64,000 nucleotides of DNA from a virus (taxonomy: Duplodnaviria > Caudoviricetes). The stretch is from positions 9,252-73,251 of the IMG/VR virus record IMGVR_UViG_3300035505_000270; one strand, given 5' to 3'. A model generated the notes under the pieces. It saw only the letters and a list, made by a program, of their open reading frames with translations, was not told the DNA's origin and made no database searches. The position numbers were made by a program, and so were the translations under genes. Positions 1 through 20,900 of the stretch are shown here, piece by piece. The number at the start of each line of letters is the position of its first letter. Within the stretch, counting starts at the first letter, position 1.

Positions 1-1
1 G

Positions 2-376
2 CCTAGAGTTCTTAGTATGTTAATATGGCAGACATGGTTTCAAAAGCCACTTAAAGCTTTATGTGCAAATGTACTAGGTACTAATGAAAAGACTGGCATC
101 TATAAAATAACCAATGTTGAGACGGGCGAGTGCTACATCGGTCAGGCAACGAATACCGCGTCTAGGTGGACAGACCATGCTAAGTGCGGATTGGGCATCG
201 ATACCCCCGCAAATAATAAACTATATAAAGCCATGCAAGAGTATGGTTTATGGTCTTTTTCTTGGGAGCTATTAGAAGAGTGCCCAAGAGAGCAATTAAA
301 TGAAAAAGAAAAATATTATATTGGGTTGTATGATAGTTATAATTTTGGCTATAATTCAACTATAGGGAATAAATAA
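2..376 (+). CDS. GIY-YIG domain protein, 5' truncated by window edge
   Basis: Frame is open from base 2 (PRVLSMLIWQTW...). GIYKITN-x-ECYIGQ, RWxxH and LNEKEKYYI are GIY-YIG motifs. Confidence 0.8.
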   Translation, partial: PRVLSMLIWQTWFQKPLKALCANVLGTNEKTGIYKITNVETGECYIGQATNTASRWTDHAKCGLGIDTPANNKLYKAMQEYGLWSFSWELLEECPREQLNEKEKYYIGLYDSYNFGYNSTIGNK

Positions 377-377
377 A

Positions 378-1052
378 ATGGGAAAAGTAATTATACAAGT
401 AGACACAACAAGACATCCTCTCCAATTAATGGGAAAAGAAGCGGGAGTTTGTTGGGGCGCAGATAGTTCAGATAAAGATAAAAATTACAAGCGCGGACTT
501 AGCTGTTTAGAAAGCGGTCATGGGCGCGTAAGCGAGTTCCCGCAAGTGTATTTAATTTTAAAAGGATATTCCACAAGGGTTATCCGCGAATTGTATACAC
601 ACATAGGCGGAGCACCTACTAGACTACAAGCAAGCACAAGATATCTTGATTATAGTGCTTTTGATTATATCATTCCATCTTCTATTGAGAATAATGATGA
701 AGCAAAAGAAATTTATCAAGATTGCATGGAGCAAATCCAGCGCTCTAGTGTTTTACTTAATAGTATTGGTATACCTAGGGAGGATGTAGCAAATCTTTTG
801 CCTCTTGGTATGACAACAGATGTTGTGATTAGAACTAACCTCCGCCAGTTGATAGATATGTCTCACCAAAGACTTTGTTCAAGAGCCTATTGGGAATTTC
901 GTCAATTAATGAATGATATAATCAACGCATTAAAAGAATATTCTGATGAATGGAAAGTAATTATTGAACAAGAGTTTAAACCTAAATGTGAATTATTTGG
1001 CTATTGTTCTGAGGCTAAGAGTTGTGGTAGAAAACCTAAAAAAGCTACATAA
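378..1052 (+). CDS. thyX: Flavin-dependent thymidylate synthase
   Basis: GHGRVSEF, RELYTH...QASTRY, EDVANLLP, TNLRQL and AYWEFR match the Thy1/ThyX pattern. Confidence 0.85.
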   Translation: MGKVIIQVDTTRHPLQLMGKEAGVCWGADSSDKDKNYKRGLSCLESGHGRVSEFPQVYLILKGYSTRVIRELYTHIGGAPTRLQASTRYLDYSAFDYIIPSSIENNDEAKEIYQDCMEQIQRSSVLLNSIGIPREDVANLLPLGMTTDVVIRTNLRQLIDMSHQRLCSRAYWEFRQLMNDIINALKEYSDEWKVIIEQEFKPKCELFGYCSEAKSCGRKPKKAT

Positions 1053-1061
1053 TAATTTTAT

Positions 1062-1090
1062 TTGATTTTTATAATTTTTTATGTTATAAT
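1062..1090 (+). promoter_or_regulatory. sigmaA/sigma70-like promoter with extended -10
   Basis: TTGATT-N17-TATAAT with TG at -15/-14. Confidence 0.75.
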
Positions 1091-1126
1091 ATAAGTATAA
1101 TAAATAAGGAATGGTAAAAATAAATT

Positions 1127-1498
1127 ATGACTAAAAAAGAAGCTTTTATTAAAATGGTAGAAGAATTACTTAACCCTCTTGACACTACAGAATTAGATAA
1201 AATGGCACTAGAGTATTTTGAAGAATTAAAAAATAGTGCTGCGCCAAAAGAAAAAGTTGAACTTACAGAGAGTGGTGCAAAGATATTAAAGTATATGCAA
1301 GAGAACGAAGCAAATAAGAGTTTTACTTCAAAAGAAATTGCGGAAGGTCTATTTACCTCTTCTCGTTCTGTATCTAGTTCAATGAGAAAATTAATTACTG
1401 AAGGTTTTGTTGAAAAACTTACATTAGAACCAATTACTTACGGTCTAACTGATAAGGGTACTACAAAAGATTTAAGTAATGTAAATATTGAAGAATAA
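1127..1498 (+). CDS. Winged helix-turn-helix DNA-binding protein
   Basis: ILKYMQE...FTSKEIAEGLFTSSRSVSSSMRKLITEGFVEK...YGLTDKG is a wHTH pattern. Confidence 0.7.
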   Translation: MTKKEAFIKMVEELLNPLDTTELDKMALEYFEELKNSAAPKEKVELTESGAKILKYMQENEANKSFTSKEIAEGLFTSSRSVSSSMRKLITEGFVEKLTLEPITYGLTDKGTTKDLSNVNIEE

Positions 1499-1522
1499 TG
1501 TATTTAAGGAGAAAATGTTTTT

Positions 1523-2470
1523 ATGAAGAAAATGATTAACGTAGAAAATATTATAGGTAGAGTTTATCAGCATGAATTAACAGTTAAGACAGTACAGAAT
1601 CAAGCTTCTTCAAATTATGGAAAAGAGTTTATTTCTGGTAATCTTGATATTGCGACAGATGAAGAAGGTTTAAATGTAGTACAGGTTCATTATACTTATG
1701 TTACACCAACTACAAGTAAAGGTGCCGTAAATCAAACTTTCAATGCTTTGAAGAAAATTATTAGTGAAAATAAGACTTGGCTTGAAGTAGGTAAGGATGA
1801 AGCTATTAAAGTTAAAGCTACTCCTTCAATAGATTTAAATGATTTTTATAATAACAACAATGAATTAGTTTCTGCAAAAAGAAATGAAGGTGGCTTCCTT
1901 AATATTGTATCTGACTTAGGAGAGGAAAATAAAAGAAATGAATTTTCTGCAGATATGCTTATTACTTCTGTAAAAACAGTAGAAGCTAATGAAGAAAAAA
2001 ATATTAAAGAAGATTATGTAGTTATTCGTGGTGCTATCTTTAATTTTAAAAAAGCACTTCTTCCAGTAGAATTTACAGTTAGAAATAAAGCTGGTATGAA
2101 TTATTTTGAAAATGCGGGTATCTCTCCTTCAGAACCAATGTTTACTAAGGTATGGGGTAAGATCAATTCCACCACTACTTATATTACAAAGGAAGAAGAT
2201 TCTGCTTTTGGAGAACCTTCAGTTCAGAAGTATCCTAAGAAAACCAAGGAATGGGAAGTAACGGGTTCACCAAGAGTTACTTATGATTATGGTGATGAAA
2301 GTGTACTTACCGCTGATGAAGTGACAAAAGCTATGCAGGATAGAGAAGTTTACCTCGCAGAGGTAAAAAAGAAGGCAGAAGAGTGGAAAGCTCAGGTTGC
2401 AGCAGGCGGTTCTAGTTCTGCGTCAACAGTAACTCCTTCTCAGGTTGCAGCAGGTGGATTTAACTTTTAA
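1523..2470 (+). CDS. Putative single-stranded DNA-binding protein
   Basis: Beta-rich 315 aa protein with a flexible Gly/Ser tail ending in aromatic GGFNF. It lies next to the recombination ATPase in the replication module. Confidence 0.5.
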   Translation: MKKMINVENIIGRVYQHELTVKTVQNQASSNYGKEFISGNLDIATDEEGLNVVQVHYTYVTPTTSKGAVNQTFNALKKIISENKTWLEVGKDEAIKVKATPSIDLNDFYNNNNELVSAKRNEGGFLNIVSDLGEENKRNEFSADMLITSVKTVEANEEKNIKEDYVVIRGAIFNFKKALLPVEFTVRNKAGMNYFENAGISPSEPMFTKVWGKINSTTTYITKEEDSAFGEPSVQKYPKKTKEWEVTGSPRVTYDYGDESVLTADEVTKAMQDREVYLAEVKKKAEEWKAQVAAGGSSSASTVTPSQVAAGGFNF

Positions 2471-2530
2471 TAAATTATAAAGGGGTAACTCCCTTATAAT
2501 AATTAAATTTTAAAATAAGGAGAATTAAAC

Positions 2531-3562
2531 ATGGCTATAGATATTTTTAATGCCCCCCATTCTGTAATCGCTAATGGATTAGAAGGAAAAGTTATTTTAA
2601 TATATGGAGGCAATAACTTAGGAAAATCTTATCAAGCAACTCGTTTTGAGAAACCTTTTGTTGTTGCTTGTGAAATGGGATTAAATGGTATTGATGGTAT
2701 ACCTTATGCTCCAATAACAAGATGGTCTGATTTTAAAAGCGTTATTAAGCAGTTTACAGATCCTAGGTCTAAAGATAAAGCTAAGGAAATGTATCATACT
2801 ATTATTATAGATGAAGTTTATGCTTCTTCAATTTATTGTCAAGATTATGTTTGCTCTACGTATGGAGATGGAGCTTTAACTATGGCAGATGGAGATAGTA
2901 AACATAATCTTTATCAATTATATGAAAAAGAGTATTTTCGTCAAATAAATTTACTGGTTAGCGCAGGTTACACAGTTGTTTTTATTGCACACGAACAGGT
3001 TAATACACAAACAGGTTTTATATCTCCTAAAGGAGATAAACGATGCATGAATCCTATTATTGATAAGTGCGATTATGTAGTGTATTTAAAAAGCAATGGC
3101 GTTGATTCAGAAGGAAGAGTTATAAAATCTTCTGGATATTTGGCTCAGACAAAAGAATTTTTTGCAAGAGCTAGAATAGAATATACGCCTACTTTTATTA
3201 AAGAATTTACAGCTGAGAATTTAGCACAAGCTATTCAAACTGGTATTGACAAAAAGAAAGAAAATGACAATGTTGTTATTGCTACTTTTGCAGAACAACA
3301 AAAATTAAATACTGTTGCAGAATTAGATTTTAATAGTTTAAAAGAAGAATTTGATAGTTTAATAGGCTCAATTCCAGGTTCTAGTGATGGAACTGAAGCA
3401 GAACAAGAACACTTTGGAAAATTTTGGGCACCTAAAATTGTTCAGCTTACAGATAAATATCTTGGAAAGGGTAAAAAAGTAGGAGAATGTAATTCAAATC
3501 AGGTTGAAGCACTCTCTCTTATTGTAGAGGAATTAAAAGAAATTATTAAATTAAATTCATAA
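2531..3562 (+). CDS. AAA-family ATPase (Sak4/AAA_24-like recombination protein)
   Basis: Walker A GGNNLGKS, Walker B IIIDEV, VVFIAHE. Confidence 0.7.
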   Translation: MAIDIFNAPHSVIANGLEGKVILIYGGNNLGKSYQATRFEKPFVVACEMGLNGIDGIPYAPITRWSDFKSVIKQFTDPRSKDKAKEMYHTIIIDEVYASSIYCQDYVCSTYGDGALTMADGDSKHNLYQLYEKEYFRQINLLVSAGYTVVFIAHEQVNTQTGFISPKGDKRCMNPIIDKCDYVVYLKSNGVDSEGRVIKSSGYLAQTKEFFARARIEYTPTFIKEFTAENLAQAIQTGIDKKKENDNVVIATFAEQQKLNTVAELDFNSLKEEFDSLIGSIPGSSDGTEAEQEHFGKFWAPKIVQLTDKYLGKGKKVGECNSNQVEALSLIVEELKEIIKLNS

Positions 3563-3567
3563 TATTG

Positions 3568-3602
3568 TTGGGCAAGGACGTAAAAGTCTTTGTCCAATTT
3601 TT
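3568..3602 (+). terminator. Rho-independent terminator
   Basis: TTGGGCAAGGAC-GTAAAA-GTCTTTGTCCAA stem followed by TTTTT. Confidence 0.7.
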
Positions 3603-3613
3603 AATTATATAGT

Positions 3614-3642
3614 TTGACTTTTAATAAAATTTATGTTATAAT
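3614..3642 (+). promoter_or_regulatory. sigmaA-like promoter
   Basis: TTGACT-N17-TATAAT with extended -10 TG. Confidence 0.8.
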
Positions 3643-3670
3643 ATATATAGAAATTAAAAAGAGGTGTAAT

Positions 3671-4195
3671 ATGGCAACAGCACATTATGTAATCTGTCCT
3701 TATTGCGGTGAGAAGTTTAACCGAGATAAGGAGCCTACAACACAGGTTTCCGCACGTAGATATGCACATAAAAAATGTGCAGAAGAACATGAAAAAAATA
3801 AAAGTCAAGAAGAAAAAGACTTAGAAGCATTAGAAAAATATATCAAGAATTTATTTGATGAAGAATATGTAAATGCAAGAGTGCGGAAGCAATTAAAAGA
3901 ATATAAAGAACAATATAATTTTACGTATAGTGGAATATTAAAAACTTTAATTTATTGGTATGAGGTAAAAGGCAATTCAATAGAGAAAGCTAATGGCGGA
4001 CTGGGGATCGTACCTTATATCTATCAACAAGCTTGCCAATACTATTATGCTTTATATTTAGCGAAATTAGCAAATGAAAATAAAGATATTCAAAACTATC
4101 ATACTAAAGTTAAGGAAGTGGAAATTCCACCTCCGCAACCAAAATTATTTAAAATAAAATTATTTAACTTAGAGGAAGAGGAAGATAATGTCTAA
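3671..4195 (+). CDS. Zn-finger protein, possible helicase loader/replication protein
   Basis: ATG at 3671 follows a GAGGTG RBS. CPYC...HxxC motif. Overlaps the dnaB start. Confidence 0.45.
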   Translation: MATAHYVICPYCGEKFNRDKEPTTQVSARRYAHKKCAEEHEKNKSQEEKDLEALEKYIKNLFDEEYVNARVRKQLKEYKEQYNFTYSGILKTLIYWYEVKGNSIEKANGGLGIVPYIYQQACQYYYALYLAKLANENKDIQNYHTKVKEVEIPPPQPKLFKIKLFNLEEEEDNV

Positions 4196-6842
4196 ATATA
4201 TAGATACAACAGCAATAATAAATGTAATAGGCTCAATTTTTCTTAATCCTTTACTATTGGATAATGAAAAATATAATTTTTATGAAGAAGATTTTCCGCA
4301 AGAGTTTCATAAAATTATTTTTGGTTCTATTTATAATTTACATAATCTTGGGGCTAAAGAAATTACTATTAGCACAATAGAAGATTACTTAGAGCAACGC
4401 CCAAAAAAGATGGCAATTTATAAAGCGAACAAAGGAACTGAATATTTAAATAAACTTGCGGAAGTTACTCAATTAGCTACTTTTGATTATTATTATAGTC
4501 GAATGAAGAAAATGACTTTATTTAGAATGTATCAAAAAATAGGTTTAGACCTCTCTTGGTTGTATGATAATGATAACATTTTAGATACTAAAAAGAAGCA
4601 AACTCAAGAAGAATGGCTAGATAATACTTCATTAGAACAGATTGCGGAAACCATAGATTCTAAGATATCTGCTATTAAAATGAAATATGCAGATGATTAT
4701 AATGAACAATCTGCGCAAGCTGGTGAAAATGTATTAGAGTTAATAGAATCTTTTAAAAAGAATCCAGAGTATGGATATCCAATGTTTGGTCCTCTTATTA
4801 ATACTATCACGCGCGGGGCTCGGTTAAAAAAGTTCTACCTACGTTCGGCCCCCTCGGGCCTCGGCAAAACGAGAGCAATGATAGCGGACGCGTGTAACTT
4901 TGCCTGCAGTGAGTTATATGATTATAAAGAACATAAATGGGTAGAGAATGGTTCTAAAGAACCTACTTTATATATTACAACAGAACAAGAGATAAATGAA
5001 ATTCAAACTATGATGATAGCTTTTATATCAGATGTAGATGAAGAGCATATTTTGACGGGAGAATATTATGAAGGAGAATGGGAGCGCGTGGTAAAAGCTT
5101 CTAATATCTTGCAAAAATCTCCCATTTATATTCAAGAGTTACATGATTTTTCTTTGCAAGATATTGAGAATACATTAAAACGTGGGATTCATGAGCATGG
5201 TGTGCGTTACTTGTGTTTGGATTATCTGCACACAAGTATGAAAATTCTTTCAGAAATATCCTCCAAATCAAAGGTATCCGGTCTCCGCGAGGATAATATT
5301 TTATTTTTAATTAGTGTTAGACTTAAAGATTTAGCTAATGATTATGGAGTGTTTATTCTCTCTTCTACGCAGTTAAATGGTAGGAAAAAGTAACTGCCAA
5401 TAAAACCTTATCCTAGAACTCACTAGGGGTATTTAATAAATTTTTGGACAAAGTTTATTAAATGCTAACGGGGAACTTTAAAGTATATTGTACAGTAAAT
5501 AACTAAATGCAATTTACCATGAGAATCCCGTGTGATGCAATCCATTCGATTTATTATGATATTTTGCATTGTCATAATAAGGAGAAAAATATGATTGGAA
5601 TTTATTTAATAACAAATAATGTAAATGGTAAAGTTTACGTGGGACAAAGTATTAATATTGAAAGAAGATATTCAGAGCATTTAAGATCTGGACAGCCTGA
5701 AAAATATTCTTTAAAAAATAAAAGAGATATTAATACTCCAATACACTTAGCAATGCAGAAATATGGTATAAGTAATTTTTCTTTAAGTATTTTAGAAGAG
5801 TGCTTAAAAGAAGAGTTAGATGATAAAGAAAGATTTTGGATTCATTATTATAATTCAACAAATAAAGAAAAAGGCTATAATATAGGTTTGGGCGGACAAG
5901 AAAGTTTTGCATTAAAAGGAGAAAATCACAGCCAAGCAAAACTTAATCAAAAAGAAGTTAATGAAATAAAAAAACTTTTAAAAGAAACTGATTTAACCCT
6001 AACCGAAATAAATGATAAATTTCCTTTTGTTTCAAAGTCTACTTTATCAATGATTAATCAAGGTAAAATTTGGTCCGAAGAAAATGAGTCATATCCAATA
6101 AGAATTATGTCAGTTGGAATAAAAGGCTCAAAAAATAAAAAAGCTAAATTTACTGATGAGCAAGTTATGGAAATAAGAAAAAAGTATGCAGAAGGTCAAA
6201 CTCCAAATCAACTTTATCCGCAATATAATCACATTGCTACCAATTCTGCTATAAAAGCTATAATTTATGGAGAATCATATAAAAATTTGCCAATTTATAA
6301 AAAGTCAATCAAAAAATGGATTGAGCCATGTATCGACTATCCCCAAAGTCTGAAACAAGCTGGGGAGTAGGGACGCTAGCTGAGATGCGTCTGCATTTTA
6401 GGAAACGAAGTGCATGAGAACCGAAATAGGTTTTAAGTTATAAAAAATTTTATAACTTTAAGAGATAGTCAGTTCCTTATAGAAATGTAAGGATTAAACG
6501 AGTTGGAAGGAAGAGAAAATTCCGGATCAAAACTTGCTTAGAGGCGCCAAAGCAATTGCAGACAAAATTGATATAGGGGCCATTATGCTGAAAGCCACAA
6601 GCGAAGATATAGAATCACTTCAACCAATCCTTGATAGTAAAACTTTTGAAGTTCCCGATATGAAAATATCAATTTATAAAAATAGACGAGGAAAATATAA
6701 TAACCTTTTCTTATGGTGCAAAAGTAATAAAGGTACTTGTAAAATTATTCCTTTATTTGCCACTGATTACAATTATGAATTTATTGAAATGGAAGATACA
6801 AAAATAAATATAAAACCCGCAATTCAAGCAAGTGCTTTTTAA
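4188..6842 (+). CDS. dnaB: Replicative DNA helicase, split by a group I intron (exons 4188-5381 and 6501-6842; 511 aa spliced)
   Basis: Walker A APSGLGKT and CLDYLH. The spliced junction reads SSTQLNG|SWKEEKIPDQNLLRGAKAIADKID in frame. Confidence 0.9.
5382..6500 (+). mobile_element. Group I intron in dnaB (1119 nt)
   Basis: Exon ends in U. P1 is TGGTAG/CTGCCA with a U.G pair. P10 pairs exon-2 AGTT with AACT. P7 is GACTAT(6335)/ATAGTC(6465). Intron ends in G6500. Confidence 0.9.
5591..6370 (+). CDS. Intron-encoded GIY-YIG homing endonuclease
   Basis: AGGAG RBS, then MIGIYLITN...VYVGQS. C-terminal NUMOD/HTH-like repeats (GENHSQAKL, GSKNKKAKFT). The ORF end overlaps the intron P7 region. Confidence 0.85.
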   Translation: MIGIYLITNNVNGKVYVGQSINIERRYSEHLRSGQPEKYSLKNKRDINTPIHLAMQKYGISNFSLSILEECLKEELDDKERFWIHYYNSTNKEKGYNIGLGGQESFALKGENHSQAKLNQKEVNEIKKLLKETDLTLTEINDKFPFVSKSTLSMINQGKIWSEENESYPIRIMSVGIKGSKNKKAKFTDEQVMEIRKKYAEGQTPNQLYPQYNHIATNSAIKAIIYGESYKNLPIYKKSIKKWIEPCIDYPQSLKQAGE

Positions 6843-8945: not shown

Positions 8946-10756
8946 AATATAAATTAATTAAAGAGATTAATCCTAATTACTCTGCGTTAGAACAGGTATT
9001 AACCAATAGAGGGATTGAATATAATAATTTGTATCATTATATAAATACAACAGATGCCGATATTAATTCACCTTTAGCTTTTGGTGAAGAAAATATGAAA
9101 AATGCGGCGGCCTCTATTATTACCGCAGTCAAGTATAATTTAAAGGCCTTAATCATTGTAGACAGTGATTGCGACGGTTTTACTTCCGCTGCCCTTCTTA
9201 TTAATTATCTTTATACTTTATTTCCCGCTTGGACTAAACATTATTTAACATGGTATATCCACGAAGGAAAACAGCATGGTTTAAATGATTGTTATGAGCA
9301 AGCCTATACAGATGATTTTAAGTTGGTGATTCTTCCAGATGCAGGTTCTAATGATGTAGAATTTCATCAGAAATTATATGAAAATGGGATTACTACAGTT
9401 TGTTTAGATCATCATATCGTAGATGCAGAAATCACTTGCGGGATTGTAATAAATAATCAAAATAGCGATTATCCTAATAAAGAATTGAGCGGAGTGGGAG
9501 TTACTTGGCAATTATGTAGATATTTAGATAGCCTTTTAAACACTGATTATGCAAATCAATATCTTGACTTGGTAGCTCTTGGCAACACTGCAGATATGCA
9601 ATCTTTGCAATCAATAGAAACAAAACATTTAATAAATAAAGGCTTTGAACCTGAGAATATTCATAATCCTTTTATTTATTATATGTGGCAAAAGAATCAA
9701 TTTAAATTAGGTGACCACATCACATCATGGGGCGCAGCTTTTTATATTGCACCTCTAGTTAATGCTATTGTGCGTAGTGGAACCCAAGAGGAAAAAGAAT
9801 TAATTTTTGAGTCGATGTTAGCTTTTAAGGCTTTTAATTTAATTCCATCTACCAAAAGAGGGCATTTACCAGGAGAACAAGAAAAATTAGTAGAGCAAGC
9901 TGTAAGAACTTGTACCAATGTGAAGAATAGACAATCAAGAGCTCAAGATGCAGGGATGGAACTTTTAGAGAATAAAATTATAGAAGATAATATGCTTGAA
10001 CATAAAGTATTATTATTCTTGCTTGAACCTGGACAAATAGACAAAAATATTGCGGGATTATGCGCAAATAAGGTAGCTTCACTTTATCAAAGACCTTGTG
10101 CTATTCTTACAAGAGTGGAAGAAATTAGTAAGGTAGAGTTTCCTAATAATGATAAAGTAATTGCAGAAATGTATACTAATATATCATATCAAGGTTCTGC
10201 AAGAGGATGTGATATAGTTGGTATTACTAATTTTAAGAGTATCTGCGCGGGAACTGGGTTGACGAGTCTAGCCGCGGGTCATGAAGGAGCCTTCGGGCTA
10301 AACATCCCCGAAGAAAACATAAATAAATTCATTTCCGCAACAGATGAAGCATTAAAAGATATGCCTTCCGAAGCATTATATTATGTTGATTATATTTATA
10401 ATGGAAATAATGTAAATCCTCAAAATATATTAGATATAGCCTCTATGGATTGCTATTGGGGGAAGGATCTATCAGAAAGCATCGTTGCTATTGAGAATTT
10501 AACTATAGTACCGGAAATGGTAACTATTTATAATAAATCAAGTATAACAATTAAAATTCAACTAAATAATAATGTAACTTTAATGTTATTTAATGCAACA
10601 GAAAAAGATTGTGATAAGTTGCAGACAAATAATACAGGCTATGTAAAAATAAATTGTGTAGGCAAATGCCATCTAAATGAATGGAATGGAAATGTGTCTC
10701 CGCAGATTTTTATAACAGAGTATGAAATTGTTGACTCTAGTAAATATTTCTTTTAA
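8942..10756 (+). CDS. recJ: RecJ-like ssDNA exonuclease (DHH family)
   Basis: VDSDCDG, LDHH, GSARG and AGHEGAFG motifs. Confidence 0.9.
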   Translation: MKYKLIKEINPNYSALEQVLTNRGIEYNNLYHYINTTDADINSPLAFGEENMKNAAASIITAVKYNLKALIIVDSDCDGFTSAALLINYLYTLFPAWTKHYLTWYIHEGKQHGLNDCYEQAYTDDFKLVILPDAGSNDVEFHQKLYENGITTVCLDHHIVDAEITCGIVINNQNSDYPNKELSGVGVTWQLCRYLDSLLNTDYANQYLDLVALGNTADMQSLQSIETKHLINKGFEPENIHNPFIYYMWQKNQFKLGDHITSWGAAFYIAPLVNAIVRSGTQEEKELIFESMLAFKAFNLIPSTKRGHLPGEQEKLVEQAVRTCTNVKNRQSRAQDAGMELLENKIIEDNMLEHKVLLFLLEPGQIDKNIAGLCANKVASLYQRPCAILTRVEEISKVEFPNNDKVIAEMYTNISYQGSARGCDIVGITNFKSICAGTGLTSLAAGHEGAFGLNIPEENINKFISATDEALKDMPSEALYYVDYIYNGNNVNPQNILDIASMDCYWGKDLSESIVAIENLTIVPEMVTIYNKSSITIKIQLNNNVTLMLFNATEKDCDKLQTNNTGYVKINCVGKCHLNEWNGNVSPQIFITEYEIVDSSKYFF

Positions 10757-10797
10757 CTGCTTGGAGGGTAAACATCCGACATTCAGATTCAAAATAG

Positions 10798-10825
10798 GGG
10801 TTTGGATTTTTTCAAACCCATTTTT
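10798..10825 (+). terminator. Probable terminator
   Basis: GGGTTTGGA-TTTT-TTCAAACCC stem followed by ATTTTT. Confidence 0.55.
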
Positions 10826-10831
10826 ACTTAT

Positions 10832-10860
10832 TTGATTTTTATATAATTTTGTGATATAAT
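10832..10860 (+). promoter_or_regulatory. sigmaA-like promoter for the helicase gene
   Basis: TTGATT-N17-TATAAT with extended -10 TG. Confidence 0.75.
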
Positions 10861-10897
10861 ATTTATAGAAAAAAAGAAAAGGAGGAAGTAGAACCTG

Positions 10898-12087
10898 ATG
10901 AAATTGACTAAAAAACAAGAAGAAGGTTTGAAAATTGCTATAGCCAGATACAGAAACAATAAAAAGTTTACTGTTATCTCTGGCTATGCCTAAAAGCAGG
11001 AACCGGGAAATCAACTCTAGTTCGTTTTATCATTGAGGCATTGGATGTAGAAGAAAGAAAAGTAGCTTATGCAACATATACAGGTAAAGCAGCAGAAGTA
11101 TTACGCAAAAAGGGTAATCCAAATGCTATGACTTTACATAAATTATTGTATGATAGTTTCCCTCGCCCGGATGGAGGTTTCTATCGCAAACCTAAAGTTT
11201 CATTGGACTTTACTATTGTTGTTGTAGATGAGGTATCAATGGTTCCTACTGAAATGATAGATTTATTATTGAGTTACAATGTTTATGTAATTTTCTTAGG
11301 CGATCCATTTCAGCTAGGCCCGATCTCTAAAAAGGATGATAATCATCTACTAGACAAGCCTCATGTATTCCTATCTGAGATTATGCGCCAAGCTGCAGAA
11401 TCTGAAATTATTCAACTTACTATGAAAATACGTGAAGGTGAAGTCATAGACTATTTTCAAGGGAAAGATATTTTAGTGATTCCTCCTAGTGAATTAGTTA
11501 CTGGGCATATGACTTGGGCAGATCAAATTATTTGCGCTACTAATAGCAAAAGAAGAGCATTAAATGATCAAATGCGCGAACTGCTTGGTTATAGCGGGCT
11601 GCCGCAAACGGGCGAACGCATGATTTGCTTATCTAATTATTGGGAAGATTTATCTGAAGATGGAGAATCTGCACTAGTAAATGGAACAACAGGTATTATT
11701 CAAAATCCTTTTGAAACCTATACTATGGCTCCACAATATATAAAAATGAAAAATCATCGCATGAATATAATTTGTGGAGAGTTTATTACAGAAGATGGAA
11801 CAACTTTTCATTCTGTTGACATGGATAAAAAAATGATACAAACTGGAGAACCTTGTCTTGATTGGAGAGAATCTTATGCTCTTGGTAAATTAAGAAATAA
11901 AATAGGGGATATCATACCTAGGCAGTTTGCGTATGGGTATGCGATTACGGCTCATAAAGCACAAGGCAGCGAATTTGATAAAGTTTTAGTCATAGAAGAG
12001 TCTTTTCCATTTGATAAAATTGAACACGCCCGGTGGCTATACACAGCTGCAACTCGTAGCGCAGAGAAGCTTGTTTTAGTGAGGTAG
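10898..12087 (+). CDS. RecD/Dda-like SF1B helicase with an 8-nt stop-containing insert in Walker A (393 aa if the insert is skipped)
   Basis: AGGAGG RBS and ATG at 10898 give MKLTKKQEEG...VISGYA, then TAA at 10991. The frame of 10999 resumes GTGKST and continues through DEVSM, GDPFQL, AHKAQGSE and WLYTAATR. Confidence 0.85.
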
Positions 12088-12092
12088 TAGAT

Positions 12093-12317
12093 ATGACACA
12101 CGACATACGGAATCCAAAAACAAGAAATGAAGCTAAAAATTTTATGGTATTTTATAAACCAATTTACACTTTAATGAATAATAAAAATACTGATATTAAA
12201 TTAATTGCTGAAATGGATTTATTTAATAATTATATTGAATTTTTAATATGTGATGAGGCAGAAGAAATTTTTTCAATTCTTCTTTTGAAATATGTGAAGC
12301 AGTTGATTTATTTTTGA
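12093..12317 (+). CDS. Hypothetical protein
   Basis: 74 aa ORF directly after the helicase; GAGGT RBS. Confidence 0.5.
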   Translation: MTHDIRNPKTRNEAKNFMVFYKPIYTLMNNKNTDIKLIAEMDLFNNYIEFLICDEAEEIFSILLLKYVKQLIYF

Positions 12318-12397
12318 TGAAGTTGATAAAGAAAATGATAAATAAATTTTTAATTCTAATAAAACTAAATCTATTTTTAGTTAGAAAATTTGAAAAG

Positions 12398-12421
12398 AAA
12401 GAGTGCTTGTCACTCTTTTTT
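12398..12421 (+). terminator. Rho-independent terminator
   Basis: AAAGAGTG-CTTGT-CACTCTTT followed by a T tract. Confidence 0.65.
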
Positions 12422-12448
12422 GACTTTTTATAAAAATTATGTTATAAT
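12420..12448 (+). promoter_or_regulatory. sigmaA-like promoter
   Basis: TTGACT-N17-TATAAT with extended -10 TG. Confidence 0.8.
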
Positions 12449-12480
12449 ATATATAGAAAAGAAAAAGGGGTATAAATAAT

Positions 12481-12768
12481 ATGTATTCCAAAAAAGAACA
12501 GTTATTAAATCTTATCAACAATATAAACGTAGAAAATAAAAACTATTCAAAGTCCTATTGGTGGGGAATTAATAATCCTTATGCTGATGAAATGGAAAGT
12601 TATCCGTATATAAAAAGTATGTTTATATCTGACAATGCTTTTGAAAGAGCATGGATAAATGAATGTTGGGAACTTGTAAATGATAAAATCGGTTTTTGGG
12701 CAGATAATTTAGATTATATTCAAATATTAGAATCCATACTAAGGAGTAAAAATGAATTATCCAGGTAG
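12481..12768 (+). CDS. Hypothetical protein
   Basis: 95 aa ORF overlapping the dnaE start. Confidence 0.6.
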   Translation: MYSKKEQLLNLINNINVENKNYSKSYWWGINNPYADEMESYPYIKSMFISDNAFERAWINECWELVNDKIGFWADNLDYIQILESILRSKNELSR

Positions 12769-15700
12769 TTTACATAATCATACCCAGATGTCGAATTTCA
12801 GGATTCGGGATTGTATTATTAAAGAGGAAGATTTAATTAATAAAGCAATAGAATTAAATCATTCAGTTATAGCAGTTACAGACCATGAAACTATAGCATC
12901 TGCAGTGAGAGTAGAAAAAATATATAATAAAATTAAAGAGAAAAATATTCCATTAAAAGTTATAATGGGTAATGAGATTTATTTATGTAGAGATGGTTTA
13001 AATAATGAAAATTATGTAGCGGGAGAAGATAAATATTATCATTTTATTCTTTTAGCTAAAGATTTGCAAGGCTATCAACAAATTTGTGAATTATCTACTA
13101 GAGCTTGGATGAGAAGTTATGTGAGTAGAGGCTTAAGAAGAGTTCCTACTTATTATCAAGATATAGTAGAAATTATAGGAAAGAAGCCAGGCCATGTTAT
13201 TGGTTCTAGCGCTTGCCTTGGTGGTATGCTTGCAACTCAACTTTTAAAATATAGAGATACTCAAGAGCAAGACACAGATTTATGGAATAAAATCTTAAAT
13301 TGGTGTCAATTAATATGTAACACTTTTGGCGGGAAAGATTATTTTTATTTAGAATTACAGCCTTCTGCTTCAAAAGAGCAAACATATGTAAATAGAAAAT
13401 TAATAGAAATATCTAATTTATTAAATATAGATTATATTATTACTACAGATTCTCATTATTTACAAAAAGAAGATAAAAATATTCATAAAGCTTTTCTTCA
13501 TGCCCAAGATGGAGATAGAGAAGTAGATTCATTTTATGCTACAACTTATTTAATGAACACAGAAGAATTAGAATCTCATTTAGATTTAACAAGAGAGGAA
13601 TTAGATAGGGCTTATAGTAATATTACAAAAATTCAAAATTTATGTGAAGATTATTCTATTTTAAAACCTTTAAAAATTCCTAGTCTTAAATGGAATGATT
13701 ATAGTAATATTTCTTTAACTCAAGAATGGATAGATAAAATTCCTATGTTAGAAACTTTTAATAATTCTTCTTTCGACGGAGATAAAAAATTAGTTAAAGC
13801 AATAATAGTAGGTATTAATAAACATGAAGATTTACAAAATCAAGAAGCTTATAATGAAATTAATAGCAATCTGCAAATGACTTGGGTATCTTCTAACGTA
13901 AATAAAGCACATTGGTCAGCCTATTATCTTAATCTTCAAAAGATTATAGATTTATGTTGGGAAGCAAATTCTATAGTAGGCCCAGGAAGAGGCTCAGGTG
14001 TAGGTTTTATTCTTTTATATTGTTTAGGTATTACACAAATTAATCCTTTAAGAGAAGAAACTAAAACTTATAGTTGGAGATTAACCCATAGGGTTTAAAG
14101 GTCTCCTAGGCATGGTGACATGCCTACAAAAAACCTCGTGAACGCAAGAAAAAGCGGTGTGAAATTATTAAAATTAATTTTGCTAACGGTGGACAGTTTT
14201 AATTAAACTCAATACCGTGCTTTTTTACTTTTCATTGGAAAAACAAGTGAAAGTAAGGAGTGTATCGACTATTCCTGATGAGTGTAAGGAAGTAGAATAG
14301 ATTTTATCACTATTCGAAGCGCGAGGACTCTCCTTTATTTTCTTTTAAACCGAAAGGAGAAAATAAATGGGACATATTTATAAAATTACAAATTTAATTA
14401 ACCAAAAAGTTTACATAGGGCAAACTATTAAAACAGTTGAAAAAAAGATTTCAACAACATAAAAATAATAGTAATAAAGAGTACTTTTCTCAAATTATTT
14501 TATATAAAGCATTTAATAAATATGGTATTAATAACTTTAAATGTGAAGAAATTGAAGAAATTGATAATGAATATTTAAATGAAAGAGAAAAATATTGGAT
14601 AGAATATTATGATAGTTATTTTAATGGTTACAATAGCACCTTGGGCGGAAGAGCTACTCAATTATATAATTGGGATATAGATGATATTATAAAAAATATA
14701 TGAGATTAAAATCTGCTCGGAAGGTAGCATTAGAAATTGGCTGTGATCATTCAACTATAGATAGAATATTGAATGAAAATGGAGTTAAACGATTTACCCC
14801 AGGACAGCAACAATCAAAACCATTAATTATAATAGATAAAGAAAATAACAAACATAATTTTGAAACGACAAGAGAAGCTGCTGAATGGTTAATTAAAAAT
14901 AAATACACAAAAATGATAAATCCTACAATAGTAAGGCAAGAAATATGTAATAGGATTAAAAATAATAAAAAGTATTTAGGTTTGGAAATATTTTATAAAG
15001 GAGAGTAAGAGATAGTCAGCTCCATTGGTGACAATGGAAAAAGTGTTTTGAACCCAGAACGTGTATCTGTTCTTGATATTGATTTTGATATAGAAGGTAG
15101 TAAAAGAGCACAAGTTTTATCAAAATTTAGAGAATTTTATGGTGAAGATAGAGTATCAAATGTAATTACTTTTAGAACAGAAAAAACTAAATCTGCTATA
15201 TTAACTGCAGCAAGAGGCTTAGGTATAGATAATGATGAGGCACAGTATTTAGCAAGTCTCATTCCCGCAGATAGAGGTCAAATAAGAAGTTTATCAGAAG
15301 TATATTATGGTAATCCCGAAAAAGATTTTAAACCAGTTACCGCCTTTGTTCAAGCTATGGATACAGATTACCAAGAACTGTGGCAAGTAGCTCAAAAAAT
15401 AGAAGGGTTAATATGCGGAACAGGTATTCATGCGGGTGGTGTTATCTTCGTGGATGAACCCTTTACCTTATCTACTGGATTAATGCGAGCGCCGGATGGT
15501 ACAATCTGTACTCAATTTGATCTTCATGACGCAGAGGCCGTGAGCCTTATCAAGTATGATGCGCTCTCAGTCGAGGCTATGGATAAACTTCATGTCTGTC
15601 TTGATTTAATTTGCAATTATGGATATGAAACAAGAGAAGCTACTTTACGTGAAACATACGAAAAAATTATAGGTATTTATAAATTAGATAGAACATCTGA

Positions 15701-17579
15701 AGATATGTGGAAAATGGTGTGGGAACATAAAATTTTATCATTATTTCAGATGGAACAGCAAAGTGGTATTCAAGGTATAGCTTTAGCCAAGCCAAAAAGT
15801 GTTAACGACCTTAGTGTTTTAAATTCAGTTATCAGACTAATGGCGCCAGATAAGAATAGCGATACCCCTTTGGTAACTTGGTCTAAATATCGTAAAAATA
15901 TCAATTTGTGGTTAAAAGAAATGCGAAATTATGGATTAAGTCAAGAAGAAATAGATTGGTTATCTAGCCATTCTGCCATTACAGACGGGATCTGTGAGTC
16001 ACAAGAGGGGCTAATGTCATTAGTCCAAGAACCTAGATTAGGCGGAAATACCTTAACTTTTGCAGATAAATGTAGAAAAGGTATTGCAAAAAAGCAAGGT
16101 AAGCTATTCCAAGAATGCGAAGATATATTTTATGAAAACATTAAAAAGAACAATTGTTCAGAAAAATTGGCACATTATGTGTGGGATGTACTGCTTAAAG
16201 TACAGCGTGGATATTCTTTTAATAGATCGCATTGTCTTGCATATTCTTTAGTAGCCTTACAAGAGATGAATTTAGCATATAAATATCCAATTATTTTTTG
16301 GAGTTGTGCTTGTTTAATTAGCAATAGTGGTTCTTTAGAAGATAATGGTACTACTGACTATGCAAAAACTGCAAAAGCACTAGGGGATATTATTTCAAGA
16401 GGAATTAAAGTAACTTTAGTAGATATTAATAAATCTAATTTTAGTTTTGAACCTGATGTAGAGAATAATCAAATCTTGTTTGGTTTAAAAGCATTAAGTG
16501 GTATTAATACAGATGTTATTAATAAAATTATTGCGGGCCGCCCTTATAAAAGTTTTATTGACTTTTTAAATCGTTGTCCATTAAATAAAACCGCTATGAT
16601 TTCTCTTATTAAAGCGGGAAGCTTTGATAACCTTGAGGAGCAATGGGCAAAAGAGTTAAATATTGAACCTAGAGTTTTAATTATGATTTATTATATTTTA
16701 AAAGTTAGTGAGCCTAAGAAAAAATTAACTTTACAAAACTTTAATGGTTTAATACAAAGAAATTTAGTGCCAGAAGATTTAACTTTCACAAAGCGAATAT
16801 ATATATTTAATGATTACTTAAAGAAAAATAAAAAAGTAGGAAAATATTATGTATTTGACGAAGCTTGTGATAGATTTTATTCTCAATTCTTTAATATGGA
16901 ATTATTACAAGTAATTAATGGTTATACTTGTATTTTACAATCTAATTGGGAAAAGATATATCAGAAAGAAATGGATGCGGCCAGGGCTTGGTTGACAAAT
17001 AACCAAGATTCGGTGCTTAAAGAGTTTAATTATCTTTTATTTAAAGAATCTTGGGATAAGTACGCAGAAGGCACTATATCAGCATGGGAAATGGAAGCAT
17101 TATGTTTTTATTATCACGAGCATGAATTAATAAATATTAATACATATAGATACGGAGTGATAGATTTCTTTAACCTACCTGAAGATCCTCAAGTTGATTA
17201 TTTCTTTAAGAGAAATGGAAAAGAAATTCCTATTTATAAGTTATACAAAATCATAGGTACGATAATTAGTAAAGACGATGCTAAATCATCAGTAACTATT
17301 TTAACAACTCGTGGTGTAGTAACAGTAAATTTTACTAAAGAATATTATGCTATGTATAACCGCAGAATATCAGAAATAGAAGCGGATGGTAGCAAAAAAG
17401 TTAAAGAAGAAGGTTGGTTTAAGCGTGGAACCAAGATTATGGTGACGGGCTTCCGCAGAGAAAATCAATTTGTAGCCAAAACCTATCAAAAAACTGAATC
17501 ACATCAATTGTATAAAATTGTACAAGTAAATAATGATACAATGATATTAGAACATAATAGATATGGACAAGGAGAGTAA
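12752..17579 (+). CDS. dnaE: DNA polymerase III alpha-like (family C), split by a group I intron (exons 12752-14081 and 15046-17579; 1287 aa spliced)
   Basis: PHP motifs LHNHT, TDHE and TTDSHY; GPGRGSG. The spliced junction reads SWR|F|LNPERVSVLDIDFD. GIHAGG and YSFNRSH follow. Confidence 0.92.
14082..15045 (+). mobile_element. Group I intron in dnaE (964 nt)
   Basis: P1 is GGAGAT/GTCTCC with a U.G pair. P3 is CCTCGTG/CGCGAGG. P7 is GACTAT(14267)/ATAGTC(15012). Terminal G15045. Confidence 0.9.
14367..15008 (+). pseudogene. Frameshifted GIY-YIG homing endonuclease in the dnaE intron
   Basis: AAGGAG RBS, then MGHIYKITN...VYIGQT. The frame breaks at an A7 run (14440-14446) and again at an A run near 14690-14700. 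Confidence 0.8.
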
Positions 17580-17581
17580 CA

Positions 17582-17875
17582 ATGACAAATGATATTGTAA
17601 ATCATCCAAATCACTATTGCAGAGAAGGGGCTATGGAAACAATTGATGAAATGCTCCTTCTCTTCGGAGAAGAAGAAGTAAAAAGTTTTTGTAAGCTTAA
17701 TGCTTGGAAATATAGAAGCAGGGCTTTGTATAAAAACAAAGAAGAAGATATTGCAAAAAGTGATTGGTATTTAAAAAAATATAAGGAATTGCAAGAAAAC
17801 AATAAAAATAATATTACTATTACTACTCCACACCCAGAGTATATTAGTACTACCCTCCTGGGTAATAATAATTAA
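17582..17875 (+). CDS. DUF3310-like phage protein
   Basis: DIVNHPNHY...ETID...NAWKY...EDIAKSDWYL pattern. Confidence 0.7.
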   Translation: MTNDIVNHPNHYCREGAMETIDEMLLLFGEEEVKSFCKLNAWKYRSRALYKNKEEDIAKSDWYLKKYKELQENNKNNITITTPHPEYISTTLLGNNN

Positions 17876-17897
17876 TTTATATTAGAAAAAATTTATA
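17860..17897 (+). promoter_or_regulatory. Candidate phage-specific promoter motif (GGNYAR-N28-YATA) upstream of nrdD
   Basis: GGGTAA(17860)-N28-TATAATAATT; same spacing as four other upstream sites. Confidence 0.4.
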
Positions 17898-17945
17898 ATA
17901 ATTATAAGCCTTAAAATAATAATGAAATAATTAGGAGGATAATTA

Positions 17946-20900
17946 ATGATAGTAATTAAAAAAAGAGATGGCTCTTTACAGCAATTTAATCAAAATAAAA
18001 TTATAAATGCGGTGCTTGCTGCGTTTAAAGCTGTAGATGGGGAACTTGATGAATATGCTTATACTAAAAGCGGTAATATAGCTAATTTCATTCAAGAGCA
18101 AGTTGAAAATGCAGATCATATTCTCAATGTAGAAGAGATACAAGACTACGTTGAAAAAGGTCTTATGGCAACAAAAAGAAAAAACGTAGCGAGAGCCTAT
18201 ATTACCTATCGTAATGAAAGAACTCGCGCAAGAGGTAATTTAACAGACCATACATTACTAGAATATTTAAGCGGACAGAGTACTTATTGGAATGAAGAAA
18301 ATTCTAATAAAGATGCAAAAGTAGTAACAACTCAACGAGATTATATTGCGGGAATTGCTTCTACAGATATTGCTCGTAGATTTTTATTACCGCAAGACGT
18401 ATGTGAAGCACATGACCAAGGTATAATTCATCAGCATGATATGGATTATATGGCACAGAACGCCTTAACTAATTGCTGTCTAATAAATCTTGATGATATG
18501 TTGCAAAATGGTACTAAAATTAATGGAGTTAGAATAGATCCACAGCATCGAATTGGTACTGCAACTACAGTAGCTACTCAAATCGTAACAGCGGTGGCTA
18601 GTTCACAGTATGGTGGCTCTACTATCACGCTCGCACATTTAGCTCCTTTCGTAAGGTCAAGCTGGAAAGAGCATTATAATAAATATCTTACTCGTGGGTT
18701 AGAGGATAAGCAGTCTCAGCAATTTGCAGACGAAGATTTGGCAAGAGAAGTAAAAGATGCTGTTCAAACTTTTAATTATCAAATTAATTCAATGAGTACA
18801 ACCAATGGACAAGCTCCTTTTCTTTCTGTTGTAATGTGGGTTAGTGAAAACCCAGAATACGAAAAAGAAAATGCTATTCTTATTGAAGAATTTTTAAAAC
18901 AAAGAATTTTAGGAATGAAAAATGAAAAAGGTGTGTATGTAACTCCCGCTTTTCCTAAATTATTATATGTATTAGATGAAAATAATATTAAAGAAAATTC
19001 TAAATATTGGTATTTAACTAAATTAGCAGCGCAATGCACTGCAAAAAGAATGGTTCCTGATTATATTTCAGCTAAGAAAATGCGAGAATATAAGGTTAAC
19101 CGTTTCGGACAGGGCGATGTCTATGGATGCATGGGATGTCGTTCGTTCCTTACGCCAGACCGTTGTACGGAAAATTATGCCAAGGCTCTTAATTATGATC
19201 CTACAAAAGGAAAATATTATGGTCGGTTGACCCGAAAGTTAAGCCGACTTAAAATTGCGTGAACTTAAGAAAAAAAGGTGTGAGCGATATGCTTGCTAAC
19301 GGTGAAAGCCGAAAGGACAATACCGTGCCAAGTCTTAAATATAATAACTAATTAAAAAGGAGTTTTTATATGAAAACAATATCTATACAAGGAATTACAT
19401 ATAAACAATTTAAAGATACAAAATATTATTGTAGCAAAGACGGAAAAATTTATTCAGATTTTTCTCAAAAGATATTAAAACCATTAATAAAAAACATTGG
19501 CAATAAACAATACTATTATATTGATATTAATTTTGGAAATGGACAAAAGCATTATCCTATTCATAAAATTGTATATGAAACATGGATAGGACAAATAGAT
19601 AATAATTTATTTGTCTTGCATAAAGATGACAATAGTCTTAATAATAATATAGATAATTTATATTTAGGAACTCAACAACAGAATATAAAAGATTGCCAAA
19701 ATAATAATCATAGAATAGGTAATACTTGGATTTTAACCGTCTATGACAAAGAAAAAAAAGAAACTGTTACTTTTTGTCCAGCAAAAGAGTTTATAACATA
19801 TAGTGAACATTCTTGTAAAAATGGTGGCATTAAAAGGGTGTTTACTAGAAATTGGTTTAAACAAAGATATGATATTATTGATTATTATTTATGTAAATCC
19901 TTAGATATAAAGAAAGGTGTAACGACTATGGGTGATGAATGTAGCCCAGTAGAGTAGATTTTATCACTACTCGAAGCGCGCAACACTTATAAAAGTGAAG
20001 AGATAGTCTAATTTAAAATTGTTAACATGGGTGTAACTACCATTAATCTTGTAGACCTAGCTTTAAGTTCCAAAGGCAACCTCCGCACATTTTGGAAACT
20101 CTTTGAACAAAGAACTGAATTATGTCACAAAGGACTTCGTGCAAGAATTGATAGATTATTAAAAGTAACTTCAGATGTAGCACCTATACTTTGGCAGGAT
20201 GGCGCCTTTGCACGGCTAAATAAAGGTGAAAGTTTAACTGATTTAATTCATCATGGCTATTCAACTGCAAGTTTAGGCTATGCAGGGTTATATGAGTGTG
20301 TTAAATATATGACAGGTCATTCTCATACTGATGGTGCAGAAGGAGAGAAATTTGGACTTGAAGTTATGCAAGCTTTAAATGATAAATGTAATCAATGGAA
20401 AGAAGCGGAAGATATAGATTATAGTTTATATGGTTCTCCTATTGAATCTACAACATATAAATTTGCGCAGTCCTTAAAGAAAAGATTTGGGGATGATGTT
20501 TTTATTAAGCTCGATGGAAAAGACAGAAACTATATAACTAATAGCTACCATGTCCCAGTTTTTGAAAAGATTTCACCTTTTGATAAATTATCAATAGAAG
20601 CAAAATTCCAAAAACTCAGTCCAGGCGGAGCAATTTCTTATATAGAATGTGCAGATTTAACACAAAATATAAATGCAGTTTTAACTGTAATTCAGTTTAT
20701 TTATGACAATATTATGTATGCGGAATTAAATACAAAATCAGATTATTGCCAAGAGTGTGGTTTCGATGGAGAAATTCTTATTGATGATAATAATGAATGG
20801 TATTGCCCAAATTGCGGAAATCGCAATCACAATACTTTAAATGTAGCAAGACGTACGTGTGGATATATTGGCTCCCATTTTTGGAACTATGGAAGAACAA

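Follow-up and report, generated by a model that had tools for sequence, protein, structure and literature searches.

Short inserts in the Walker A motif of a phage helicase family: a probable short counterpart of T4 gene 60 bypassing, linked to HNH endonuclease cassettes

The interrupted helicase gene

The window analyzed in this study is a 64,000-nt stretch of the IMG/VR record IMGVR_UViG_3300035505_000270 (Caudoviricetes; positions 9,252 to 73,251 of the record), and coordinates given without a locus name refer to it. The window contains a helicase gene that has to be read in two parts. The upstream part, ORF1, occupies positions 10898-10993 of the plus strand. It starts with ATG 10898, comprises 31 codons and ends with GGC TAT GCC TAA (10982-10993), which places a stop codon inside the Walker A motif. 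The helicase sequence continues in the +2 frame, which is open at 10963-12087 and reads GCA GGA ACC GGG AAA TCA from 10996. Deleting 8 nt (10991-10998 or an equivalent window) joins the two parts into a single protein of 31+362 = 393 residues with GYAGTGKST as its Walker A motif. The first start codon in the downstream frame, TTG 11041, is located 3' of Walker A, 14 codons beyond the codon at which reading would resume. The features of the locus are as follows.

10832..10860, plus strand: promoter-like site, TTGATT, 17-nt spacer, TATAAT, TG-extended (consensus match only, 10/12 positions)
10872..11011, plus strand: cassette-derived segment comprising the RBS, the 31 N-terminal codons, the insert and the GTGK codons (its history is unlike that of the rest of the gene)
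10879..10889, plus strand: RBS AAAGGAGGAAG, 8 nt 5' of the ATG (the same RBS block is kept in cassette-bearing relatives)
10898..10990, plus strand: ORF1, helicase codons 1-31 (M...VISGYA), with the first half of Walker A at its end (N-terminal dN/dS <1 between insert-bearing lineages)
10988..10990, plus strand: proposed take-off codon GCC (Ala31)
10991..10993, plus strand: TAA stop, in the A site at take-off (read from the sequence)
10991..10998, plus strand: 8-nt insert TAAAAGCA relative to intact homologs, which read GGN TAY GCN GGN; 10991-10995 would be skipped
10996..10998, plus strand: landing triplet GCA, a synonymous Ala codon directly 5' of the resume codon GGA (assigned by the landing rule of the family)
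10999..12087, plus strand: ORF2, 362 codons from GTGKST to a TAG stop, with AAA_30 and UvrD_C_2 (C-terminal dN/dS 0.03-0.3 between insert-bearing genes)

Based on its database matches, the gene is an SF1 Dda/RecD-like helicase, and all of its motifs appear intact once the 8 nt are skipped. The downstream part matches the Pfam families AAA_30 (E 4.6e-22), AAA_19 and UvrD_C_2 (E 5.1e-16) and has no other lesion. The best assignment in PHROGs is phrog_325, Dda-like helicase (E 7e-79), and tblastn revealed ~40% identity to the Dda-like helicases of PBS1 and AR9. An earlier note on this DNA, made from the sequence alone, had described a stop-containing 8-nt insert in Walker A whose removal restores GYAGTGKST and 393 residues, a retained sigmaA-like promoter and RBS, helicase motifs free of further lesions, and TTG 11041, which lacks Walker A, as the only alternative start. 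Our reading agrees on all of these points, with the reservation that the promoter is a match to the consensus only. A terminator-like hairpin (9 pairs, then a T run) occupies 10798-10819, between a RecJ-like gene and the helicase promoter, and therefore the helicase appears to form its own transcription unit. We found neither other hop-like ORF junctions nor tRNA genes in the window.

Recurrence and sequence rules of the inserts

A protein-guided scan of IMG/VR returned 38 related helicase loci. Eight of them carried 5, 6 or 8 extra nt at exactly this codon; closer relatives were uninterrupted. Two pattern scans in which the insert positions were left free, together with other searches, gave the final count of 78 distinct insert-bearing helicase loci in IMG/VR. 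These loci carry 36 different insert sequences (types), all of them after the same Ala codon. Among the types, 6 are 5 nt long, 10 are 6 nt, 9 are 7 nt and 11 are 8 nt, and all three frames are present. Inserts of 1-4 nt or 9-30 nt behind GGC TAY GCN were absent from the helicase family; such searches returned only chance matches in unrelated P-loop proteins. Skipping the insert always restores GYAG[TS]GK[ST], and the intact homologs, 21 out of 21, have the unextended motif GYAG[TSV]GK[ST] or GFAGTGKT. The insert of the window is one base off the TGAAAGCA insert shared by two relatives, L048 and L049. Finding one and the same codon interrupted in as many as 78 distinct related genes puts the layout well outside what chance would produce. 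At the same time, the insert lineages are not independent because the cassette that carries them (see below) has a common origin, and counts of insert types consequently overstate the statistics.

The inserts follow simple rules at both ends. The first insert triplet is TAA in 26 types, TGA in 6, TAG in 3 and CGG in 1; in other words, 35 of the 36 types begin with a stop codon. The exceptional type, CGGTG, has no stop at the site, and the zero-frame stop follows nine codons downstream. CGG does not occur as a codon in any ORF of the two contigs carrying this type. The last insert triplet is GCN in 18 types, GTN in 9 and ACN in 9, with no others observed. All these triplets, which we refer to as landing triplets, are at most one transition away from the Ala take-off codon GCY, and half of them (GTN, ACN) are only near-cognate. 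In terms of pairing with tRNA(Ala), GCN can pair fully with the NGC anticodon, GUN would have a G-U pair at the middle position and ACN keeps positions 2 and 3, meaning that each landing class can form at least two pairs with the anticodon. The chance expectation for the landing rule is ~0.13-0.19 per type, and the corresponding positions were free in the search patterns. In the 5-nt inserts the landing triplet overlaps the stop codon (TRA-CN, TAG-TN), which forces its first base and makes 5 nt the minimum.

The take-off codon is similarly restricted. In the 78 insert loci it is GCC (43), GCT (34) or GCA (1), i.e. GCY in 77 out of 78 cases. Of the 1118 Ala codons in the window only 98 are GCC, the fewest for any Ala codon, and the phages are AT-rich. 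It is possible that weak pairing of the take-off codon underlies the preference for GCY, but this is no more than an inference. The earlier note had emphasized an Ala take-off codon matched by an Ala landing codon. This description is correct for the window (GCC and GCA); as a rule for the family it does not hold, given that GTN and ACN also serve as landing triplets.

We also looked around the gap for signals of the kind known to stimulate bypassing in T4 gene 60. Folding of 36-58-nt windows upstream of, across and downstream of the gap in 72 insert-bearing and 19 intact loci revealed no stable or conserved hairpin. The minimum free energies of these single-sequence folds (mean z ~-0.2) were the same as for intact genes, and the gap itself, being only 5-8 nt long, cannot hold a hairpin. 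Nor did we find a nascent peptide that would clearly distinguish insert genes from intact ones. The insert genes share ...GLKIAVAR...IAGYA modestly more than the intact genes share ...GLKIALER...ISGYA, which possibly reflects mere cassette ancestry.

Maintenance of the interrupted genes

Substitution rates indicate that both halves of the gene are under purifying selection, even between close relatives having inserts of different length. For the C-terminal parts of L042 (7-nt insert) and L047 (8-nt insert), we obtained a dS of 0.25 and a dN of 0.008 (omega 0.03). Between deeper insert-bearing lineages omega of the C-terminal part is 0.1-0.3, and over the 30 N-terminal codons it remains <1. The start codon and the RBS are kept in insert-bearing relatives. 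In three complete and one 93% complete insert-bearing genomes the interrupted gene is the sole AAA_30 helicase, and the same is true of the window's own, partial record (~53% complete). According to the earlier note, a programmed element would be supported by a GCN-stop-short spacer arrangement at the same codon of divergent homologs with low dN/dS on both sides, and contradicted by a singleton whose close relatives are all intact. The 78 loci display the former and exclude the latter.

Many relatives, insert-bearing ones included, have in-frame TAG codons at conserved Gln positions of the helicase (GDPF-TAG-LPP, WAD-TAG-I). Such relatives include L023-L027, L034, L076, L078, L087, L095-L097, L104, L130, L152 and others. 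The positions of these codons indicate that TAG is recoded as Gln, and this recoding would explain the apparent internal TAG stops. In those TAG=Gln relatives whose inserts are listed, the insert starts with TAA or TGA, not TAG. We considered recoding of TAA as an explanation for the inserts themselves and rejected it: TAG is the only stop codon reassigned (to Gln) in the relatives, and in any case the reading frames are not the same.

Association with an HNH endonuclease cassette

The earlier note contained no mention of a link to homing endonucleases. In two insert-bearing relatives, L012 and L021, a gene for an HNH endonuclease of 175-178 aa ends at the helicase start (phrog_2255, E 1e-22; the protein has no Pfam match); in L012 it occupies 1631-2155. 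A search with this HNH protein identified 12 close loci, and in all 12 the adjacent helicase carries an insert. Overall, the HNH gene is found directly upstream of 23 of the 67 insert loci with enough flanking sequence versus 0 of 19 intact loci (Fisher p = 0.002). In L012 (2150-2170), no nucleotide separates the HNH stop codon TAA from the helicase ATG (..GTT TAA ATG..), an arrangement suggesting that the nuclease and the interrupted helicase may be translationally coupled there. A tblastn comparison of the HNH proteins with bases 1-6500 of T4 gave nothing below E 0.4; T4 mobA is itself degenerate.

In the helicase tree the insert is polyphyletic, and 3-4 gains or losses are needed to account for its distribution. 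Identity profiles point in the same direction. In L021 and L041, the 3' half of the HNH gene and the 31 N-terminal helicase codons are 88-95% identical, while identity is 65-70% just past the insert. The comparison of L012 with its intact sister L008 gives 90-97% identity beyond about +300 nt and increasing divergence as the insert is approached, a profile that indicates a co-conversion tract of ~300 nt.

The window itself is a mosaic. Between 10872 and 11011 it shares 85% identity with the HNH cassettes of L048/L049, and the best 25 matches of this segment all have an insert. On either side, at 10762-10883 and 11012-12100, it matches another relative, L001, with 95% and 92% identity, respectively. 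No HNH homolog was found in the window's own record, which is ~53% complete. With a cassette-like segment, L001-like flanks and no HNH gene, the window therefore carries a cassette remnant without the nuclease. Taken with the identity profiles above, this mosaic shows, at the level of sequence comparison, recombination of the kind expected from horizontal spread or co-conversion of the cassette. The earlier note had also entertained a very recent knockout. We reject this possibility, as the cassette segment has diverged by ~15% from its nearest relatives and yet the insert has been kept.

Other intervening elements in the window and its relatives

L001 (IMGVR_UViG_3300035520_000887) is the closest helicase relative of the window (94% identity in the C-terminal part). 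Its N-terminus differs from that of the window, and its P-loop is an intact GYAGSGK. Right after GK, four codons from the hop site, L001 has an intein of ~360 aa with LAGLIDADG motifs (509-1613), which starts with Ala and ends with ...VTHN before T. Two different selfish elements, the HNH cassette and the intein, thus compete for the same P-loop DNA in near-identical phages.

DNA polymerase III alpha (dnaE-like) is encoded in the window (12752-17579) by two ORFs, 12752-14098 and 15048-17579; its PHP motif is intact. The gap of ~950 nt between them holds a GIY-YIG-like ORF (14437-14703) and an HTH ORF (14700-15008). A search of window positions 10000-18000 against Rfam returned no match, and no group I intron was detected at the split dnaE, which may represent an unrecognized intron or a fractured gene. 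In the insert-bearing relative L016, an ORF for a 282-aa HNH_3 + NUMOD4 endonuclease (5897-6745) lies just 3' of a dnaE-like ORF ending at 533 aa; the replication module here encodes a further homing endonuclease of the free-standing kind. In L118 (IMGVR_UViG_3300045988_168855), the insert-bearing helicase has a second interruption at codon ~107, where TAA stands between GDPG and Q and none of the frames of the sequence behind it continues the protein. This second interruption may be an intron or another inserted element.

Proposed mechanism

The data on anatomy, recurrence, frame independence, the landing rule, purifying selection, HNH linkage and mosaic history are direct observations. We interpret them with good, though not full, confidence as a remnant of an HNH cassette combined with a short insert that is skipped by hopping of peptidyl-tRNA(Ala). 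Translation through the gap is inferred and has no bench evidence behind it.

In this interpretation, the 8 nt would be the 3' end of a mobile element. In relatives the element would consist of the HNH gene (175-180 aa), a replacement for the helicase RBS and first 31 codons, and an insert after the Ala between GYA and GTGKST; the window would retain the replacement 5' end and the insert without the HNH gene. A ribosome with GCC (Ala31) in its P site is predicted to face TAA, a codon that is slow to be decoded, in its A site. The peptidyl-tRNA(Ala) would then unpair, the mRNA would slide by 8 nt, the tRNA would re-pair with GCA and decoding would resume at GGA. The expected product is the 393-aa helicase with a normal Walker A motif and the junction ...FTVISGYAGTGK. 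Ribosomes terminating at TAA instead would release a 31-aa peptide; the efficiency of bypass has not been shown. Unprogrammed stop-hops in E. coli are reportedly only ~1% efficient. As for purpose, we infer by analogy with T4 MobA that an insert in the most conserved DNA of the gene would disrupt the target of the endonuclease and so spare the element's own genome, presumably leaving the protein unchanged. The cleavage specificity of the HNH protein has not been shown and its target site is unknown.

Two lines of evidence favor hopping in particular. First, the insert lengths cover all three frames, which means that no single frameshift or readthrough event could serve every variant; as far as can be deduced, programmed bypassing is the only single mechanism that would restore the P-loop whichever of the four lengths (5, 6, 7 or 8 nt) the insert has. 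The strong comparative evidence accordingly supports the programmed bypassing put forward in the earlier note, without proving it. Second, a mere requirement for a small residue before the glycine would admit Ser, Gly or Pro codons, which are never seen, making the landing rule a likely signature of P-site re-pairing by peptidyl-tRNA(Ala).

We also lean towards a broader proposal, namely that the inserts constitute a second, independent and simpler natural class of programmed bypass. The class would reside in HNH cassettes of phages of gut or rumen-type Firmicutes and would use a self-protecting 5-8-nt scar made of a stop plus a near-cognate triplet.

Alternative explanations

The most serious alternative to bypassing, which we nevertheless consider unlikely, is a mixture of local recoding events: +2 frameshifting for 8-nt inserts, +1 for 7-nt inserts, stop readthrough for 6-nt inserts and -1 frameshifting for 5-nt inserts. 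The product would have two extra residues, A-x-[A/V/T]-G-T-G-K-S, and would still fit the loose pattern [AG]xxxxGK[ST]. Translating the inserts by hand, we found that every insert length can indeed be read in this way with exactly two residues added and with the Ala of GYA at the first P-loop position, and that the triplet preceding GGN would then specify A, V or T, all of them small residues. However, four different mechanisms would have to operate at a single site. A slippery sequence is absent, and tRNA(Ala) would find nothing to re-pair with at +1, +2 or -1. Close relatives switch between 7 and 8 nt under an omega of 0.03, and none of the 21 intact homologs has an extended motif. Moreover, if the protein simply tolerated small residues, codons for Ser, Gly, Pro or Cys would also be expected, whereas only transition neighbors of GCN occur.

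In a second alternative the interrupted genes are dead, and the inserts would be scars left where a hot spot was cleaved by an endonuclease and repaired imprecisely, in phages that can do without this helicase. The site is certainly targeted by selfish elements, as the HNH cassette in many relatives and the intein in L001 illustrate, and no expression data exist. Even so, the probability of this explanation seems very small. The 78 loci, compared up to saturated dS, have no second lesion in the same code (TAG stops being accounted for by TAG=Gln), omega is 0.03-0.3 on both sides of the insert, and the start codon and RBS are retained. The inserts are also non-random in obeying the rules for stop or hungry codons and for landing triplets, and the interrupted gene is the only AAA_30 helicase of complete genomes.

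Equally improbable, in our estimation, is the synthesis of two polypeptides, in which translation would stop and re-initiate near the landing triplet, and the 31-aa and 362-aa products would assemble non-covalently. There is a precedent, as MobA/MobE insertions make split, re-associating proteins (bioRxiv 10.1101/2022.08.31.505936), and the 2-5 nt between the stop and the resume codon resemble the spacing of coupled genes. Yet the resume site, GGN, has no start codon, and the first one in frame in the window comes 14 codons later. In addition, the CGGTG type lacks a stop codon at this position, two polypeptides would have the P-loop itself divided between GYA and GTGK, and the Ala-like landing triplets would be left unexplained.

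Finally, removal of the insert from RNA (by a tiny intron, editing, or cleavage and ligation) and an assembly or sequencing artefact can both be set aside as scarcely credible: the phage does have other intervening elements (the split dnaE with its GIY-YIG ORF, and the intein of a close relative), but neither Rfam hits in 10000-18000 nor a structure signal lend support to the mini-intron or intron remnant considered in the earlier note, we know of no self-splicing RNA of 5-8 nt, and the finding of 36 distinct inserts, spread over contigs of dozens of metagenomes and all obeying codon-level rules, rules out an assembly artefact as a general explanation.

Comparison with known systems

Returning to programmed bypassing as the preferred interpretation, the helicase gap is most likely a short counterpart of the rare bypass of T4 gene 60, with ribosomes hopping over it, although this is deduced from sequences and lacks bench evidence. 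The T4 system has been described by Huang (1988), Bonocora (2011) and Manning and Atkins (bioRxiv 10.1101/2022.08.31.505936). In T4-like phages, the bypass is present in every phage with MobA as well as in several that lost MobA; it blocks self-cleavage by MobA and begins with a stop or hungry codon (bioRxiv 10.1101/2022.08.31.505936).

The two systems have much in common. As in T4 gene 60/MobA, the stretch immediately 3' of an HNH gene is a replacement of the N-terminal coding sequence with a non-coding insert at its end, and the insert is located in a highly conserved part of an essential replication gene. In both cases a stop or hungry codon follows the take-off codon, and take-off and landing sites can pair with the same tRNA. 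The distribution is also alike: the insert is present in every endonuclease-bearing genome, persists after loss of the nuclease and is patchy and recombinant.

There are, however, clear differences. The helicase gap is 5-8 nt compared with 20-50 nt in T4, and the helicase family has neither a take-off stem-loop nor other detectable structure. The target is the P-loop of a Dda/RecD-like helicase, while in T4 it is a topoisomerase, and the interruption has not divided the helicase into two genes. Take-off would involve tRNA(Ala) rather than a tRNA for Gly or Asp, and many of the landing triplets are merely near-cognate. No similarity between the HNH protein and the T4 mobA region could be detected. 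The hosts of the helicase phages are probably low-GC Firmicutes, and the helicase hop, unlike that of T4, has not been demonstrated at the bench.

The layout also resembles the synthetic stop-hops constructed in E. coli (Weiss et al. 1987), in which peptidyl-tRNA passes over a stop to a matched codon a few nucleotides downstream. As in those constructs, the process would be frame independent, and in the 6-nt types 9 nt would specify one amino acid. The synthetic hops were engineered and inefficient, whereas the helicase layout is natural, conserved and located in a gene under selection. According to a review (PMC5009743), no natural in-frame stop-hop is known. Judging by their layout, the 6-nt types are natural counterparts of the synthetic stop-hops; hopping itself is inferred. 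In the translational-bypass literature that we searched, we found no mention of the helicase case.

A further parallel is provided by the byps of Magnusiomyces capitatus mitochondria (Lang 2014; Nosek 2015), which are 27-55 nt long, contain a hairpin and occur at 81 sites in one mitochondrial genome (PMC5009743). They, too, are numerous, short, mobile and non-coding inserts in essential genes, with an unused or stop codon in the A site, but in contrast to the helicase inserts they are not linked to an endonuclease gene. LAGLIDADG inteins in the P-loops of helicases and ATPases are similar in being selfish, in occupying the same conserved P-loop DNA and in leaving the mature protein unchanged. 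Inteins are translated and remove themselves from the protein, whereas the helicase insert would remain untranslated and the nuclease gene is located outside the interrupted gene.

Hosts and implications

The window had no blastn match among cultured phages, and with tblastn identities not exceeding 40% there is no cultured model phage. Only three relatives were found in contigs of metagenome-assembled genomes, in bins of Firmicutes, Clostridium and Oscillospiraceae, and the hosts are probably low-GC Firmicutes.

To our knowledge, bench demonstrations of bypassing that is actually used are essentially confined to T4 gene 60 and the byps of yeast mitochondria, both of which depend on long, structured gaps. 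If the class proposed here is real, it would represent an efficient hop without RNA structure, relying only on weak pairing at the GCY take-off codon, slow decoding in the A site and the ability of tRNA(Ala) to re-pair, and it would include the first natural in-frame stop-hops. The 36 natural variants cover all frames, three stop codons, one hungry codon and both cognate and near-cognate landings, and as such they form a ready-made mutational series on what the ribosome minimally needs for hopping. Gene callers will systematically misannotate such essential genes as truncated or as pseudogenes. For the phages themselves, the helicase inserts would extend the strategy of an endonuclease plus an untranslated immunity insert beyond T4.
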